From Escherichia coli (GTDB taxonomy: Bacteria; Pseudomonadota; Gammaproteobacteria; Enterobacterales; Enterobacteriaceae), in the NCBI RefSeq assembly GCF_050920415.1, contig NZ_CP169309.1: a stretch of 64,000 nucleotides of DNA. One strand, 5' to 3'. The notes beneath the pieces are model-generated. The model made no database searches, was not told the DNA's origin, and saw only the letters and a program-made list of their open reading frames with translations. Below, in pieces: positions 10,366 to 61,098 of this stretch; position 1 is the first letter of the stretch, and each line of letters opens with the position of its first letter. The position numbers and the translations under genes were made by a program.

Positions 10366-11228
10366 CGCTGTGTCTCCAGCCAGTTCAGCCACTGGTCCAT
10401 CCCTTCGCCGCTGGTGGCGGAAATAAGGATGATTTCAATTTCTGGATTGACTTCGCGGGCGCAGGCGATGCACTTCTCAACGTCGAAATTGAGATACGGC
10501 AGCAGGTCAACTTTGTTGAGCAGCATCAGTGAGGCGGCGGCAAACATATGTGGATATTTCAGCGGTTTGTCTTCACCTTCGGTAACGGAAAGCACCGCCA
10601 CTTTGTGTTTTTCACCGAGATCGAAGCTCGCCGGACATACGAGGTTGCCAACGTTTTCGATAAACAGAATACCGTTATCGTCCAGTGGCAGGCGCGGCGC
10701 GGCGTCGGCAATCATCTGTGCGTCAAGATGGCAACCTTTACCGGTATTCACCTGAATCGCTGGCGTGCCGGTAGCGCGAATGCGCGCGGCATCGTTCACG
10801 GTTTGCTGGTCACCTTCAATAACTGCGCACGGAACGCTGTCTTTCAGGCGTATCAAGGTTTCCGTCAGCAGGGTGGTTTTACCGGAACCAGGGCTGGAAA
10901 CCAGGTTGAGTACCAACTGATTGCGGGCAGCAAAGCGCGCTCGGTTGCGTTCAGCCAGACGGTTGTTTTTGTCCAGCACGTCAATTTCGACTTCCAGCAT
11001 CCGACGCTGGCTCATGCCCGGCGCGTGAGTACCCGCTTCGCCATGACCGTAATGCAGGTCGCCTTCTTCAGTCTGGCTGGGGGTAAATTCAGGCGCTTTA
11101 ATGCCGGTGATTTTCATCTTCGGGCGTGCCGCCGGGGCAAATGGCGCGCTACGAAACGCGGAATGAGGGTTATGTTCATCACCCTCGATATACAGGTTGC
11201 CTTCACCGCAACCGCATGTTGTACACAT
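10356..11228 (-). CDS. hypB: [NiFe]-hydrogenase nickel-incorporation GTPase HypB
   Basis: 290-aa ORF; N-terminal [10 protein letters not shown] metal-binding motif; P-loop GSGKTT. Confidence 0.95.
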
Positions 11229-11231
11229 CGC

Positions 11232-11582
11232 TCACTCCTGGTCTATTTCTATCCGCCGAATCTGTAAACCGTCGTCTGCCACAATTTGTAGCATGTCGCC
11301 ATGACACTGTGGACAGCGTCGGACGCGCTGGGTTAATAGCGTCACATATTGTTGGCATGTTTCGCACCAGCATTCGGCCTCTTGTTCTTCGAGGTGCAGT
11401 TTACAACCTTCCGCCACGCTGCCGCGGCAAACCAGATCAAAACAAAAGGCAAGAGAGCTGGTTTCGACACAAGAAAATGCGCCAATTTTGAGCCAGACCC
11501 CAGTTACGCGTTTTGCGCCGTGTTTTGCGGCCTGCTGTTCGATCAATTCCAGTGCCCGTTGGCAGAGGGTTATTTCGTGCAT
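11232..11582 (-). CDS. hypA: [NiFe]-hydrogenase nickel insertion protein HypA
   Basis: 116 aa from MHEITLCQ; zinc site CxxC...CxxC; GGGAGG Shine-Dalgarno upstream. Confidence 0.92.
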   Translation of the reverse strand: MHEITLCQRALELIEQQAAKHGAKRVTGVWLKIGAFSCVETSSLAFCFDLVCRGSVAEGCKLHLEEQEAECWCETCQQYVTLLTQRVRRCPQCHGDMLQIVADDGLQIRRIEIDQE

Positions 11583-11613
11583 ATCGCCTCCCATTAACTA
11601 TTGCCAGCTACAA

Positions 11614-11628
11614 GCAATAATTGTGCCA
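11614..11628 (-). promoter_or_regulatory. sigma54 (-24/-12) promoter for hypA: TGGCAC-aatta-TTGC on minus strand
   Basis: Plus strand reads GCAATAATTGTGCCA; exact match to TGGCAC-N5-TTGC. Confidence 0.8.
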
Positions 11629-11654
11629 GTGTTGATTATCCCTGCGGTGAATAA

Positions 11655-11700
11655 TGTCGATGATGTCGAAATGACACGTCGACACGGCGACGAAATTCAT
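11655..11700. promoter_or_regulatory. Putative FhlA upstream activating sequence between the divergent hyp and hyc promoters (repeated TGTCGA/CGAAAT motifs)
   Basis: Repeated and inverted TGTCGA, TCGACA and CGAAAT(G/T) elements between two sigma54 promoters of FhlA-activated operons. Confidence 0.45.
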
Positions 11701-11741
11701 CTTTAGCTTAAAAATCGCTTTAATAACAATAAATTAAAAGT

Positions 11742-11757
11742 TGGCACAGAAAATGCT
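11742..11757 (+). promoter_or_regulatory. sigma54 (-24/-12) promoter for the hyc operon: TGGCAC-agaaaa-TGCT
   Basis: GG-N10-GC spacing exactly as consensus; about 37 bp upstream of the hycA start. Confidence 0.8.
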
Positions 11758-11793
11758 TAAAGCTGGCATCTCTGTTAAACGGGTAACCTGACA

Positions 11794-12255
11794 ATGACTA
11801 TTTGGGAAATAAGCGAGAAAGCCGATTACATCGCACAGCGGCATCGTCGCCTACAGGACCAGTGGCATCTCTACTGCAATTCGCTGGTTCAGGGGATCAC
11901 GTTATCGAAAGCGCGCCTGCATCACGCCATGAGCTGTGCGCCAGACAAAGAACTCTGTTTCGTCCTTTTTGAACATTTTCGCATTTACGTCACCCTGGCG
12001 GATGGCTTTAACAGCCACACCATCGAGTATTACGTCGAAACGAAAGAGGGTGAAGAAAAACAGCGGATTGCGCAGGCACAATTGAGCATTGACGGAATGA
12101 TAGATGGCAAGGTCAACATCCGCGATCGCGAACAGGTGCTGGAACACTATCTCGAAAAAATCGCTGGCGTTTACGACAGCTTATACACCGCCATTGAAAA
12201 CAATGTACCGGTGAATTTAAGCCAACTGGTAAAGGGACAAAGCCCGGCGGCATGA
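11794..12255 (+). CDS. hycA: Formate hydrogenlyase regulatory protein HycA
   Basis: 153-aa ORF, first gene of the hyc operon. Confidence 0.92.
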   Translation: MTIWEISEKADYIAQRHRRLQDQWHLYCNSLVQGITLSKARLHHAMSCAPDKELCFVLFEHFRIYVTLADGFNSHTIEYYVETKEGEEKQRIAQAQLSIDGMIDGKVNIRDREQVLEHYLEKIAGVYDSLYTAIENNVPVNLSQLVKGQSPAA

Positions 12256-12379
12256 GCTGAGGCTTTGCCCGTTTTGCAGGCGTTACGCCTGTTTGGGGAT
12301 GGGCGTGTCGATGAGTGTCGAAAATGACATTTCATCGGCATGTTTTCGTCAAAAATGACAATCACCTGAGGAATGCCTG

Positions 12380-12991
12380 GTGAATCGTTTTGTAATTGCT
12401 GACTCCACGCTCTGTATCGGCTGCCACACCTGTGAGGCCGCCTGTTCAGAGACGCATCGCCAGCACGGCCTGCAATCAATGCCGCGCCTGCGAGTGATGC
12501 TAAATGAAAAAGAATCTGCGCCGCAGCTCTGTCACCACTGTGAAGATGCACCCTGTGCGGTGGTCTGCCCGGTTAACGCTATCACCCGCGTTGATGGGGC
12601 AGTGCAGCTGAATGAAAGCCTGTGCGTAAGCTGCAAACTGTGCGGCATCGCCTGCCCGTTTGGCGCAATCGAATTTTCCGGCAGCCGTCCGCTGGATATT
12701 CCGGCAAACGCCAATACCCCGAAAGCGCCACCGGCACCGCCTGCTCCGGCGCGTGTCAGCACGTTGCTTGACTGGGTGCCGGGTATTCGCGCGATCGCCG
12801 TCAAATGTGACCTCTGTAGCTTTGATGAACAAGGTCCGGCCTGCGTGCGGATGTGCCCAACCAAAGCCCTGCATCTGGTGGATAACACCGATATCGCCCG
12901 TGTCAGCAAACGTAAGCGTGAGCTGACTTTTAACACGGATTTTGGCGATCTCACCTTGTTTCAGCAGGCTCAAAGTGGAGAGGCTAAATGA
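12380..12991 (+). CDS. hycB: Formate hydrogenlyase subunit 2, 4Fe-4S ferredoxin-type
   Basis: 203-aa ORF with multiple CxxCxxCxxxCP clusters; GTG start. Confidence 0.95.
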   Translation: MNRFVIADSTLCIGCHTCEAACSETHRQHGLQSMPRLRVMLNEKESAPQLCHHCEDAPCAVVCPVNAITRVDGAVQLNESLCVSCKLCGIACPFGAIEFSGSRPLDIPANANTPKAPPAPPAPARVSTLLDWVPGIRAIAVKCDLCSFDEQGPACVRMCPTKALHLVDNTDIARVSKRKRELTFNTDFGDLTLFQQAQSGEAK

Positions 12992-14814
12992 GCGCAATTT
13001 CCCTGATCAATAGCGGCGTGGCGTGGTTTGTTGCCGCCGCTGTTCTGGCATTTCTCTTTTCTTTTCAAAAGGCGTTAAGCGGCTGGATTGCCGGAATTGG
13101 CGGCGCGGTGGGTAGCCTGTATACGGCAGCCGCAGGCTTCACTGTGCTGACTGGCGCGGTTGGCGTGAGCGGCGCGTTGTCGCTGGTAAGCTACAATGTG
13201 CAAATCTCTCCGCTTAATGCGATTTGGCTGATAACCCTCGGCCTGTGCGGTCTGTTTGTCAGCCTCTACAACATTGACTGGCATCGCCATGCGCAGGTGA
13301 AGTGTAACGGCTTGCAGATCAATATGTTGATGGCTGCTGCCGTCTGTGCCGTCATTGCCAGCAATCTGGGCATGTTCGTAGTAATGGCAGAAATCATGGC
13401 CCTGTGTGCGGTGTTCCTCACCAGCAACAGCAAAGAGGGCAAACTGTGGTTTGTGCTGGGGCGTCTTGGCACTTTGCTGCTGGCGATTGCTTGCTGGCTG
13501 CTGTGGCAACGTTACGGCACGCTGGATCTGCGCCTGCTGGATATGCGCATGCAACAGCTGCCGCTTGGTTCCGATATCTGGCTGCTCGGTGTGATTGGTT
13601 TTGGCCTGCTGGCCGGGATTATCCCGCTGCACGGCTGGGTGCCGCAGGCACATGCTAACGCCTCTGCGCCAGCTGCGGCGCTGTTTTCCACGGTGGTGAT
13701 GAAAATTGGCCTGCTGGGTATTTTAACCCTGTCTCTGCTGGGCGGTAATGCGCCGCTGTGGTGGGGAATTGCACTTCTGGTACTCGGCATGATCACCGCG
13801 TTCGTCGGCGGTCTGTATGCGCTGATGGAGCACAACATTCAGCGTTTGCTGGCTTACCACACTCTGGAAAATATCGGCATCATCCTGCTGGGGCTGGGCG
13901 CTGGCGTAACGGGTATCGCGCTTGAACAACCGGCGCTGATTGCCCTTGGCCTGGTCGGTGGTCTGTACCATCTGCTTAACCATAGCCTGTTCAAGAGCGT
14001 ACTGTTCCTCGGGGCTGGGAGCGTCTGGTTCCGTACCGGTCATCGCGATATCGAAAAACTCGGCGGTATTGGCAAAAAAATGCCGGTTATCTCCATCGCC
14101 ATGTTGGTCGGTCTGATGGCAATGGCTGCGCTGCCACCGCTGAACGGTTTTGCCGGGGAATGGGTTATCTATCAATCCTTCTTCAAACTGAGCAATAGTG
14201 GCGCGTTTGTTGCTCGTCTTCTCGGGCCGCTGCTCGCCGTGGGGCTGGCAATTACCGGTGCGCTGGCAGTGATGTGTATGGCGAAAGTTTATGGCGTTAC
14301 TTTCCTTGGCGCGCCGCGTACCAAAGAAGCCGAAAACGCCACCTGTGCGCCGCTCCTGATGAGCGTAAGCGTAGTGGCACTGGCGATTTGCTGCGTGATT
14401 GGCGGTGTTGCTGCGCCGTGGCTGCTGCCGATGTTGTCTGCAGCCGTACCTCTGCCGCTGGAGCCTGCTAATACAACCGTTTCTCAACCAATGATCACGT
14501 TGCTGCTGATTGCCTGCCCACTTCTGCCATTCATCATTATGGCGATTTGCAAAGGCGACCGTCTGCCGTCGCGTTCCCGCGGCGCTGCCTGGGTATGTGG
14601 CTACGACCATGAAAAATCAATGGTGATTACCGCTCACGGTTTTGCCATGCCGGTGAAACAGGCATTTGCGCCAGTGCTGAAACTGCGCAAATGGCTGAAT
14701 CCGGTGTCGCTGGTACCAGGCTGGCAGTGCGAGGGGAGTGCGTTGCTGTTCCGCCGGATGGCGCTGGTTGAACTGGCGGTGCTGGTGGTGATTATTGTTT
14801 CACGAGGAGCCTGA
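12988..14814 (+). CDS. hycC: Hydrogenase-3 membrane subunit (NuoL-like antiporter module)
   Basis: 608-aa polytopic membrane ORF. Confidence 0.95.
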   Translation: MSAISLINSGVAWFVAAAVLAFLFSFQKALSGWIAGIGGAVGSLYTAAAGFTVLTGAVGVSGALSLVSYNVQISPLNAIWLITLGLCGLFVSLYNIDWHRHAQVKCNGLQINMLMAAAVCAVIASNLGMFVVMAEIMALCAVFLTSNSKEGKLWFVLGRLGTLLLAIACWLLWQRYGTLDLRLLDMRMQQLPLGSDIWLLGVIGFGLLAGIIPLHGWVPQAHANASAPAAALFSTVVMKIGLLGILTLSLLGGNAPLWWGIALLVLGMITAFVGGLYALMEHNIQRLLAYHTLENIGIILLGLGAGVTGIALEQPALIALGLVGGLYHLLNHSLFKSVLFLGAGSVWFRTGHRDIEKLGGIGKKMPVISIAMLVGLMAMAALPPLNGFAGEWVIYQSFFKLSNSGAFVARLLGPLLAVGLAITGALAVMCMAKVYGVTFLGAPRTKEAENATCAPLLMSVSVVALAICCVIGGVAAPWLLPMLSAAVPLPLEPANTTVSQPMITLLLIACPLLPFIIMAICKGDRLPSRSRGAAWVCGYDHEKSMVITAHGFAMPVKQAFAPVLKLRKWLNPVSLVPGWQCEGSALLFRRMALVELAVLVVIIVSRGA

Positions 14815-19656: not shown

Positions 19657-19823
19657 TTCGTAGACAAACATATTCACGTTTTTGAATTTGGACGTGCTAT
19701 TGTGACGGTTAGACGGGTGTTTACATATTGTGAACACTCGTGTGATCAACTACTATAGAAAAATAAAACCGAAGGAACGGGTAGTCCAGGCTTAGTCATT
19801 CAGGCGCTGATAAGGAAGTTAAA

Positions 19824-20135
19824 ATGCACATCATTTCTAAAGCGCCATTTGAAGAGTCTGCGCGTAAATATCCTAACGACGCTCTGGCTCTACACTCATT
19901 GTATCGGGTTATTAAGGAAACGGATTTTTCTACGCCAGAAGAAATGCGAACGGCGTTTCCCAACCTCGACAATTTTAAATATCGCAATAAATGGTACGTT
20001 CTGGATGTAGGCGGGAACAATCTTAGGGTTATTGCCTACATAAACTTTGTTAATAAGCGGTTCTTTGTGAAGCACATAACGAATCATGCCGAGTATGACA
20101 AACTGACACGTTACTACAGAGAGAACAAAGAATGA
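19824..20135 (+). CDS. HigB-family type II toxin (RelE/ParE-superfamily mRNA interferase), accessory gene
   Basis: 103-aa ORF; FPNLDNFKY...VGGNNLRVIAY...HITNHAEYD pattern resembles HigB as I recall it; AAGGAAG Shine-Dalgarno; toxin-first order; 4-bp ATGA overlap with the downstream antitoxin. Confidence 0.75.
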   Translation: MHIISKAPFEESARKYPNDALALHSLYRVIKETDFSTPEEMRTAFPNLDNFKYRNKWYVLDVGGNNLRVIAYINFVNKRFFVKHITNHAEYDKLTRYYRENKE

Positions 20136-20551
20136 CTGCTAATGCTGCACGCGCTGTTAAAGCAACAAGAGAACTGGTCAATGCAGTCCCCTTTCTGGGA
20201 GGCAGTGACTCAGAAGATGATTATCGTGAAGCACTGGAACTGGTCGAATATTTGATTGAAGAAGATGACACCAATCCACTTATCGACTTTCTGGCGAGCC
20301 GTATTGCAGAATATGAAAACAACCACGAAAAGTTTGCAGAGTTCGATAAAGCCGTTGCAGCAATGCCGATTGGCGTGGCGTTACTTCGCACGCTGATTGA
20401 TCAACATAATCTGACCTATGCGGATTTGAAGAACGAAATCGGCTCTAAATCCCTGGTCAGTCAGATTTTGTCTGGACAAAGATCCCTGACGATATCCCAC
20501 ATTAAGGCACTTTCAGCCCGATTTGGCGTTAAGCCGGAATGGTTTCTTTGA
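20132..20551 (+). CDS. HigA-family antitoxin with C-terminal XRE-type helix-turn-helix
   Basis: 139-aa ORF; C-terminal SKSLVSQILSGQRSLTISHIKALSARFGV HTH; start overlaps toxin stop. Confidence 0.75.
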   Translation: MTANAARAVKATRELVNAVPFLGGSDSEDDYREALELVEYLIEEDDTNPLIDFLASRIAEYENNHEKFAEFDKAVAAMPIGVALLRTLIDQHNLTYADLKNEIGSKSLVSQILSGQRSLTISHIKALSARFGVKPEWFL

Positions 20552-20578
20552 TTTTTGACAGATGCCAAACGCCAGATT

Positions 20579-20658
20579 GCCCGATGTGCTGCGCTTATCG
20601 GGCCTACATGTCGCACGAACTATGTAGGCCGGATAAGGCGTTCACGCCGCATCCGGCA
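20579..20658. repeat. BIME: two REP elements in opposite orientation
   Basis: GCCCGATGTGCTGCGCTTATCGGGCCTACA and TGTAGGCCGGATAAGGCGTTCACGCCGCATCCGGCA are typical REP palindromes. Confidence 0.8.
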
Positions 20659-20665
20659 CGTTTGC

Positions 20666-23556
<2,891 letters not shown>

Positions 23557-24826: not shown

Positions 24827-24839
24827 ACATTGTCATCAC

Positions 24840-24876
24840 ATGTCATCGTCACTAGTGTCGATGACATCGTTTTTTC
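24840..24876 (+). terminator. Rho-independent terminator after ascG
   Basis: ATGTCATCG-tcactagtgt-CGATGACAT hairpin followed by CGTTTTTT. Confidence 0.75.
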
Positions 24877-24975
24877 TGCATTGCAGAATTTAATTTCTTT
24901 AAATAACAATGAATTAAAAATTGGCATGATTTGTGAATGTATCGGCAGCATTAACTGTCATTGCTGGAGAATTTG

Positions 24976-30617: not shown

Positions 30618-30634
30618 TTGCAGATTGCGTGCCA
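30618..30634 (-). promoter_or_regulatory. sigma54 promoter of norVW: TGGCAC-gcaat-CTGCA on minus strand
   Basis: Plus strand TTGCAGATTGCGTGCCAG; GG-N10-GC spacing as consensus. Confidence 0.8.
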
Positions 30635-35696: not shown

Positions 35697-37234
<1,538 letters not shown>

Positions 37235-60839: not shown

Positions 60840-61098
60840 CCCCTGATGGCAAATGTGGCATGAATATTGATGCGAGCAAATCGCCGGAATTTCCCATGAT
60901 ATAAGGGCTGAGAGCAAATCGAGAAAGTTGATATTTTTTTGTCATAGATAGCGAAAAAACGCCTGAATATTGTGGTTTCAGGCGAATAATGCAACAGAGT
61001 ATCAGTGTAGATCACCACAAAATATTTGCGTGATAAAAAGCTATTTGGCGGGAATTATTTCCCCTGCTGAAGTTGGTGAAATTTTGAAAAATAACCGG

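Follow-up and report, generated by a model that had tools for sequence, protein, structure and literature searches.

In Escherichia coli, the hyc operon (hydrogenase-3) and the hyp operon (hydrogenase maturation) begin back to back, and the question raised by this arrangement is whether one block of activator sites, placed between two outward-facing sigma-54 promoters, serves both of them. A sequence-only reading of this DNA had proposed such a shared FhlA enhancer and had placed it at 11655-11700. The region is a textbook case of formate-regulon control and was mapped in the 1990s. Here, it has been analysed within a 64-kb stretch of E. coli DNA (the window, to which all positions refer) and compared with the equivalent loci of related genera.

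Locus, genes and comparative set

The spacer between hypA and hycA measures 211 bp and contains both promoters as well as the central block, hereafter UAS1 (Table 1). The 601 bp around it are 100% identical to E. coli strain 2017-02-2CC, in whose annotation mutS–ygbA–fhlA–hypEDCBA and hycABCDEFGHI lie on opposite strands, and the same 601-bp stretch is found in 5425 of 5426 complete E. coli genomes. With respect to K-12 MG1655, two of the 211 bases of the spacer differ, both outside the motifs: position 11717 (G here, T in K-12) and position 11749 (G here, A in K-12), which falls within the N5 spacer of the hyc promoter. The spacer between hycA and hycB shows no difference from K-12. Since these spacers are identical or nearly identical to those of K-12, published work on that strain carries over directly. 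The locus is thus the divergent region, already known, that controls the hyc and hyp operons within the E. coli formate regulon. It is the same locus as the K-12 hyc-hyp region of Lutz et al. 1990, Schlensog 1994, Hopper 1994 and Leonhartsberger 2000. The system is already known, and the region is an ordinary one.

The comparative set comprised 80 hycA loci from Escherichia, Salmonella, Citrobacter, Enterobacter, Lelliottia, Klebsiella, Raoultella, Kluyvera, Kosakonia and others. In each of the 80, hypA and hycA are transcribed divergently, and 79 have 188-223 bp between the two genes; for the remaining locus (L012) a spacer of 93 bp was computed, probably due to a mis-anchored hypA start. Conservation is expressed as the mean majority frequency per segment in an alignment of 38 species. 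Measured in this way, both promoters, the core of UAS1, an IHF-like site and a second block located in the hycA-hycB spacer (UAS2) are conserved across the 38 species and the spacers between them are not, the flanking spacers having values of 0.26-0.60.

Table 1. Features of the hyp-hyc control region, and of the hydN-hypF promoter region, in the window.
Feature	Position	Strand	Basis or details
hypA CDS	11232..11582	minus	ORF MHEITLCQRA...; first gene of hypABCDE-fhlA
hypA Shine-Dalgarno (GGAGGC on minus strand)	11586..11591	minus	GCCTCC invariant or nearly so in 38 species
hyp sigma-54 promoter, TGGCACAATTATTGCT	11613..11628	minus	-24 GG at 11627/11626; -12 GC at 11615/11614
UAS1 core (predicted), 30-bp imperfect palindrome with four TGTC/GACA half-sites	11654..11684	strandless	matrix, repeats, conservation
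Extra half-site, GACGAAATT (reverse complement AATTTCGTC)	11689..11697	plus	7/8 match to published half-site CATTTCGT
IHF-like site, TAACAATAAATTA	11724..11736	plus	12/13, one mismatch to WATCAANNNNTTR
hyc sigma-54 promoter, TGGCACAGAAAATGCT	11742-11757	plus	-24 GG at 11743/11744; -12 GC at 11755/11756
Conserved hycA 5' leader, TTAAACGGGTAACCTGACA	11774..11793	plus	conservation 0.77
hycA CDS (FhlA antagonist)	11794..12255	plus	ORF, annotation, PF11046
UAS2, second FhlA-type block	12305..12360	strandless	TGTCGA at 12307; TGTCGAAAATGACA at 12316-12329; CGTCAAAAATGACA at 12347-12360
hycB start (GTG)	12380	plus	ORF list
hydN-hypF region	array 24829-24870; A/T block 24901-24920; sigma-54 motif TGGCATGATTTGTGAA 24922-24937		matches K-12 ChIP-seq site

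Scans for sigma-70 promoters and intrinsic terminators around the locus gave results at chance level, and no ModE-type TATAT-N7-TAYAT was seen by eye upstream of hyc. The leader of hycA is conserved across genera though it carries no strong Shine-Dalgarno sequence. At the far end of the operon, between hycI and ascB (approximately 19699-20944; 20300-21545 in locus L001), there are two extra genes, one hypothetical and one encoding a helix-turn-helix protein; because this interval is presumably empty in K-12, they fit the offset of approximately 0.8 kb in the position of norV and hydN relative to that strain.

The two sigma-54 promoters

Each promoter faces its own gene. The hyp motif (TGGCACAATTATTGC, minus strand, 11628..11614) is an exact TGGCAC-N5-TTGC, the sole exact match in the window. 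The hyc motif, read in the canonical register (11742-11756), is TGGCAC-N5-ATGC, with one mismatch (ATGC for TTGC); the form TGGCAC-N6-TGCT, in which it had previously been worded, corresponds to the same bases. In both promoters the distance from the start of GG to the start of GC is 12 nt, which is the canonical -24/-12 spacing, and the -12 element lies 32 nt from the ATG of hypA and 38 nt from that of hycA. Judging from the -12 elements, transcription would start near 11602 in hyp and near 11768 in hyc.

A table of K-12 sigma-54 ChIP-seq sites (PMC4591121) gives CTGGCACAATTATTGCT for hypA and TTGGCACAAAAAATGCT for hycA. The hyp promoter described here is identical to the first of these sites, and the hyc promoter has a single difference from the second, at 11749, an N position. 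In Salmonella, the orthologous hyp and hyc promoters are among the sigma-54 sites obtained by ChIP-chip, and FhlA dependence is attributed there, from ChIP-chip together with expression arrays, to hyc, hyp, hydN-hypF and fdhF. Furthermore, the promoters are the best-conserved parts of the hypA-hycA spacer, with values of 0.90 for hyp (11 of 15 columns invariant across the 38 species) and 0.87 for hyc (10 of 16).

If pattern matching alone were taken into account, the motifs could be read as chance matches in an A/T-rich spacer. The sigma-54 pattern, allowing one mismatch at most, is matched 8 times in the window when 7.3 matches are expected, which is chance level; and, with a matrix built from 186 sigma-54 promoters, the highest score in the window belongs to hyp (19.0) and the third-highest to hyc (15.5), but shuffled sequence already attains a mean of approximately 15, with 19.5 as the highest value among 20 shuffles. 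However, the motifs are invariant in 38 species while the adjacent spacer bases vary, sigma-54 has been located at them by ChIP in two species, and the cluster of hexamers between them is unique in the window. Chance matching, to which we would leave a negligible probability, is ruled out by conservation and the published ChIP data, and it is this context, rather than the pattern by itself, that makes the promoters real. Thus, the outward-facing pair proposed by the sequence-only reading holds, with the motifs at the coordinates it had given, the expected genes hypA and hycA on the flanks, and the support of K-12 and Salmonella ChIP and of the 38-species alignment.

Some further observations concern these motifs. 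Taken together, the two promoters (11602-11628 and 11742-11768) make up an imperfect inverted repeat of 27 nt (78%), which runs beyond the -12 elements to a common AGCTGGCA near the inferred starts, and this extension past -12 is conserved in Escherichia only. Elsewhere in the window, the second-best sigma-54 matrix score belongs to the norV promoter (TGGCACGCAATCTGCA, 30619-30634, minus strand), identical to the K-12 ChIP-seq site, and the fourth to a motif inside hycC (TGGCGCGTTTGTTGCT, 14199-14214, plus strand), the counterpart of which is an intragenic K-12 ChIP-seq site, GTGGCGCGTTTGTTGCC (PMC4591121). An isolated strong match (TGGCATGAATATTGAT, 60856-60871) scores 14.4.

The central block

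The repeats that had been reported between the promoters were all located at their given positions within 11655-11700: TGTCGA at 11655 and 11664, TCGACA at 11679 and CGAAAT at 11667 and 11691. The presence of at least three TGTCGA/TCGACA hexamers per 46 bp occurs in one place in the 64 kb, and was equalled in 7 of 300 shuffles. The core is made up of TGTCGA at 11655, TGTCGAAATGACA at 11664-11676 and TCGACA at 11679-11684, in a near-symmetrical layout (11655-11684) that can be written as TGTCGA-tga-TGTCGaaaTGACA-cg-TCGACA.

Two descriptions of FhlA sites are available for comparison: an enhancer consensus, CATTTCGTACGAAATG, given in PMC4987338, which cites Leonhartsberger et al. 2000, and a 14-column matrix obtained from 13 characterised sites, roughly TGTC-RAWRAT-GWCA, reported in PMC7658346. 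The full 16-bp consensus is absent from UAS1 (best 9/16) and, as a whole, from UAS2, and its best scores in the window fall at unrelated places; therefore, half-sites and the 14-mer matrix were used. Both CGAAAT elements match a half-site of the consensus in 7 of 8 positions. With the matrix, the segment 11655-11668 scores 16.0, the second-best value of approximately 128,000 window positions, in a scan that is partly circular because the matrix was probably trained in part on these K-12 sites. The most conserved element of UAS1, TGTCGAAATGACA, is missed by the 14-mer matrix because its spacer is 5 bp long; this 13-mer variant with a 5-bp spacer is also seen at UAS2 in many species, so a difference of one base in the spacing appears to be tolerated.

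Conservation sets the limits of the block. The segment 11654-11683 has a value of 0.83, with a centre (TGWCGAAATGACAYGTC) that is nearly invariant in the 38 species, and the segment 11684-11702 a value of 0.26; Escherichia, Salmonella and the C. amalonaticus/C. sedlakii group are the only ones to retain this second segment. The second CGAAAT and the extra half-site at 11689..11697 lie within it and are specific to Escherichia and its close relatives. The assignment of the block to FhlA is favoured by the matrix and half-site matches, but the limits of 11655-11700 were drawn too wide, only 11654-11683 being conserved. It is likely that the central block, with its core at 11654-11684, is an FhlA enhancer, a prediction in which dependence on sigma-54 and FhlA is taken from the literature. 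For annotation purposes, the enhancer core should be corrected from 11655-11700 to 11654-11684.

A full-text search of the literature returned no paper describing FhlA footprints or naming the hyp enhancer, and a search with the site sequences themselves returned unrelated papers only. The single terminator-like match (11692..11677) was discarded, since it corresponds to the palindrome within UAS1 and lies in DNA that is not transcribed. Outside the control region, a TGTCGAAA half-site lies within hypA (11462-11469, minus strand), approximately 115 bp into its coding sequence, probably by chance, and an isolated strong match to the FhlA matrix (TGTCGATGGTGTCA, 36143-36156) scores 14.7.

The IHF-like site

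Between UAS1 and the hyc promoter, in the conserved A/T block directly upstream of the -24 element, there is a conserved IHF-like site (11724-11736) that the sequence-only reading overlooked. Its conservation value is 0.79 in the 38 species. A perfect WATCAANNNNTTR is found 18-19 nt before TGGCA in 24 of 79 loci, with no other perfect match in those spacers, and there are four perfect matches in the whole 64 kb. IHF has been given as an activator of the hyc and hyp genes (PMC2636881). On the hyp side of UAS1 there is no IHF site. As predicted from its sequence and position, the putative IHF site belongs to the architecture of the hyc promoter.

UAS2, an FhlA-type block in the hycA-hycB spacer

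A further element that had been overlooked is UAS2, a second FhlA-type block identical to that of K-12 and separated from UAS1 by approximately 650 bp. It contains the best FhlA-matrix score in the window (TGTCGAAAATGACA, 17.4 of a possible 17.6) and a second match that scores 12.1 (CGTCAAAAATGACA). Its left part nearly duplicates UAS1 (TGTCGATGAGTGTCGAAAATGACA versus TGTCGATGA-TGTCGAAA-TGACA). The half-site TGWCGAAA occurs 11 times in the window, with 3.6 occurrences expected, and three of them are within UAS1 and UAS2. UAS2 is also better conserved than UAS1 (0.86 and 0.97, with 24 invariant columns), and its elements TGTCGA, GTGTCGA and TTTCGTCAAAAATGAC are invariant in 38 of 38 species, even in those with a spacer of 67-83 bp.

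UAS2 lies in transcribed sequence, approximately 20-75 nt before the GTG of hycB, and it might accordingly be kept because it acts as RNA, for instance in controlling the translation of hycB or the processing of the hyc transcript, its likeness to FhlA sites being secondary. In favour of such a role, 13 of the 17 positions of its right half (TTTCGTCAAAAATGAC) are invariant, including spacer bases that are degenerate in the FhlA matrix, and the block fills nearly the whole gap in the species with the 67-83 bp spacer. However, UAS2 nearly duplicates UAS1, which is untranscribed, and carries a near-maximal match to the FhlA matrix; moreover, a scan of 11000-12800 against Rfam, with E-values up to 1, gave no RNA family. 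In Kosakonia, 16-17 nt are inserted between UAS2 and the Shine-Dalgarno sequence of hycB and the block is retained, so UAS2 need not stand at a constant distance from the ribosome site. A purpose at the RNA level is, in our opinion, improbable, and UAS2 is treated below as an FhlA-type block.

Just 3' of the hycA stop codon, at 12277-12298, a hairpin (CAGGCG-TTA-CGCCTG) followed by TTTGGGG was observed; it is present in Escherichia-type spacers only and was not called by the terminator scan.

Spacing of the elements across species

The distances between promoters and enhancer core were analysed in approximately 73 loci, after dropping seven in which the promoter or the core pattern was not found, and the rows of Kosakonia quasisacchari, K. 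pseudosacchari and a related soil MAG were discounted, the automatic anchor having fallen on the wrong GACA. In this set, the hyp -24 element lies 45-47 or 56-58 bp from the core, and the core 48, 59-62 or 70-71 bp from the hyc -24 element, with promoter-to-promoter distances of 95, 105-106 or 117-119 bp (115 bp in one locus). The two partial distances may change with an equal total, as occurs between Escherichia (47/70) and Kluyvera or Klebsiella (57/61). All the steps measure approximately 10-12 bp, about one helical turn; therefore, the enhancer would keep the same helical face to both promoters. This constancy is suggestive of some role of UAS1 at hyp too, given that, with the distance between UAS1 and hyp quantised in this way, the lack of any relation between them would be unexpected.

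Which block serves which promoter

Schlensog et al. 1994, Hopper et al. 1994 and Leonhartsberger et al. 2000 are said to have found that FhlA binds both regions, and in these same Böck-lab papers the site between hypA and hycA reportedly activates hyc and that between hycA and hycB reportedly activates hyp; on this account FhlA presumably binds inside 11655-11700 and also outside it, at UAS2.

Measured from the inferred starts, the UAS1 core extends from about -84 to -114 with respect to hyc and from about -52 to -82 with respect to hyp, a position that is canonical for hyc (approximately 100 bp upstream) and atypically close for hyp. UAS2 is located at about -703 to -758 from hyp and at +537 to +592 from hyc. 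The central block does not stand as the only enhancer of both promoters, UAS2 being outside the spacer and better conserved. With the assignment reportedly made in the Böck-lab papers, UAS1 is likely to be primarily the enhancer of hyc and is not demonstrably shared, UAS2 being the main enhancer of hyp. The sharing of UAS1 by both operons, as had been put forward from the sequence, is probably not the main mechanism.

The two outward sigma-54 promoters drive hypABCDE-fhlA on the minus strand and hycABCDEFGHI on the plus strand. Following this assignment, FhlA activated by formate would occupy UAS1, and a bend induced by IHF would bring the bound FhlA to the sigma-54 holoenzyme waiting at Phyc, which would be opened by FhlA at the expense of ATP. 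UAS2, reportedly the main enhancer of Phyp in the Böck-lab papers, would act by looping over approximately 700 bp.

A different distribution of functions, in which UAS1 is the single FhlA enhancer common to the two divergent promoters and UAS2 is auxiliary or has another purpose, is possible and, to our judgement, rather doubtful. It would be in agreement with the location of UAS1 between the promoters, where it is the sole conserved non-promoter element on the hyp side, with the changes of its distances to both of them in steps of about one helical turn, and with its structure as a near-symmetrical 30-bp palindrome, which therefore has no intrinsic direction. Nevertheless, the 52-82 bp that approximately separate UAS1 from the inferred hyp start, where there is no bend site, are short for sigma-54 looping, and the more strongly conserved UAS2 needs a function, which in the published account is reportedly that of hyp enhancer. 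Moreover, only a small number of independent indel events, perhaps four or five, underlie the quantised distances, and a constraint on the spacing between the two promoters could by itself yield them.

A more complex organisation can also be conceived, in which UAS1, UAS2 and both promoters are parts of one phased nucleoprotein complex. FhlA oligomers would bridge UAS1 and UAS2, looping out hycA, and the resulting assembly would be read by both promoters; we regard the complex, and equally this bridging, as unlikely. If true, it would explain the sliding of the core by whole turns, the promoter spacings of 95, 106 and 118 bp and the near-invariance of UAS2. The reading that we retain is that UAS1 would act mainly on hyc and UAS2 mainly on hyp.

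Comparison with other FhlA and sigma-54 promoters

Another FhlA-dependent promoter in the window is that of hydN-hypF (24829-24937). Like hyc, it has an array of TGTC/GACA half-sites, an A/T block with an IHF-like site and TGGCA, and the A/T blocks of the two are nearly identical (AAATAACAATGAATTAAAAA in hydN-hypF, TTTAATAACAATAAATTAAAAG in hyc). However, hydN-hypF has a single promoter and not a divergent pair, the spacing of its half-sites is different (TGTCGATGACA, with a 3-bp spacer) and its -12 element (TGTGAA) is weaker.

Half-sites of the TGWCGAA(A) type (TGACGAAA) are also found upstream of K-12 fdhF and hyfA. The K-12 fdhF upstream region resembles the present one in having such half-sites (TTTCGTCA three times, and CGTCAAAACTGACG) approximately 100 bp upstream of a sigma-54 promoter, but it differs in that fdhF has no divergent partner, and no obvious IHF consensus was found beside its -24 element.

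For the sharing of an enhancer there is a precedent in zraP-zraSR, which, as reportedly described by Leonhartsberger et al. 2001, has back-to-back sigma-54 promoters with central ZraR sites that serve both. Like hyc-hyp, it consists of a divergent sigma-54 pair with the activator sites in the middle; the difference is that hyc-hyp has a second block, UAS2, outside the spacer.

Implications

The discovery value of this analysis is small, as the region was already known and has been reconfirmed by genome-wide sigma-54 ChIP. The quantisation of its distances in helical turns across genera constitutes a small new comparative observation. In addition, the conserved FhlA-type block between hycA and hycB matters for the engineering of hyc and hyp for hydrogen production, since constructs in which hycA and its downstream spacer are deleted or replaced would lose UAS2.
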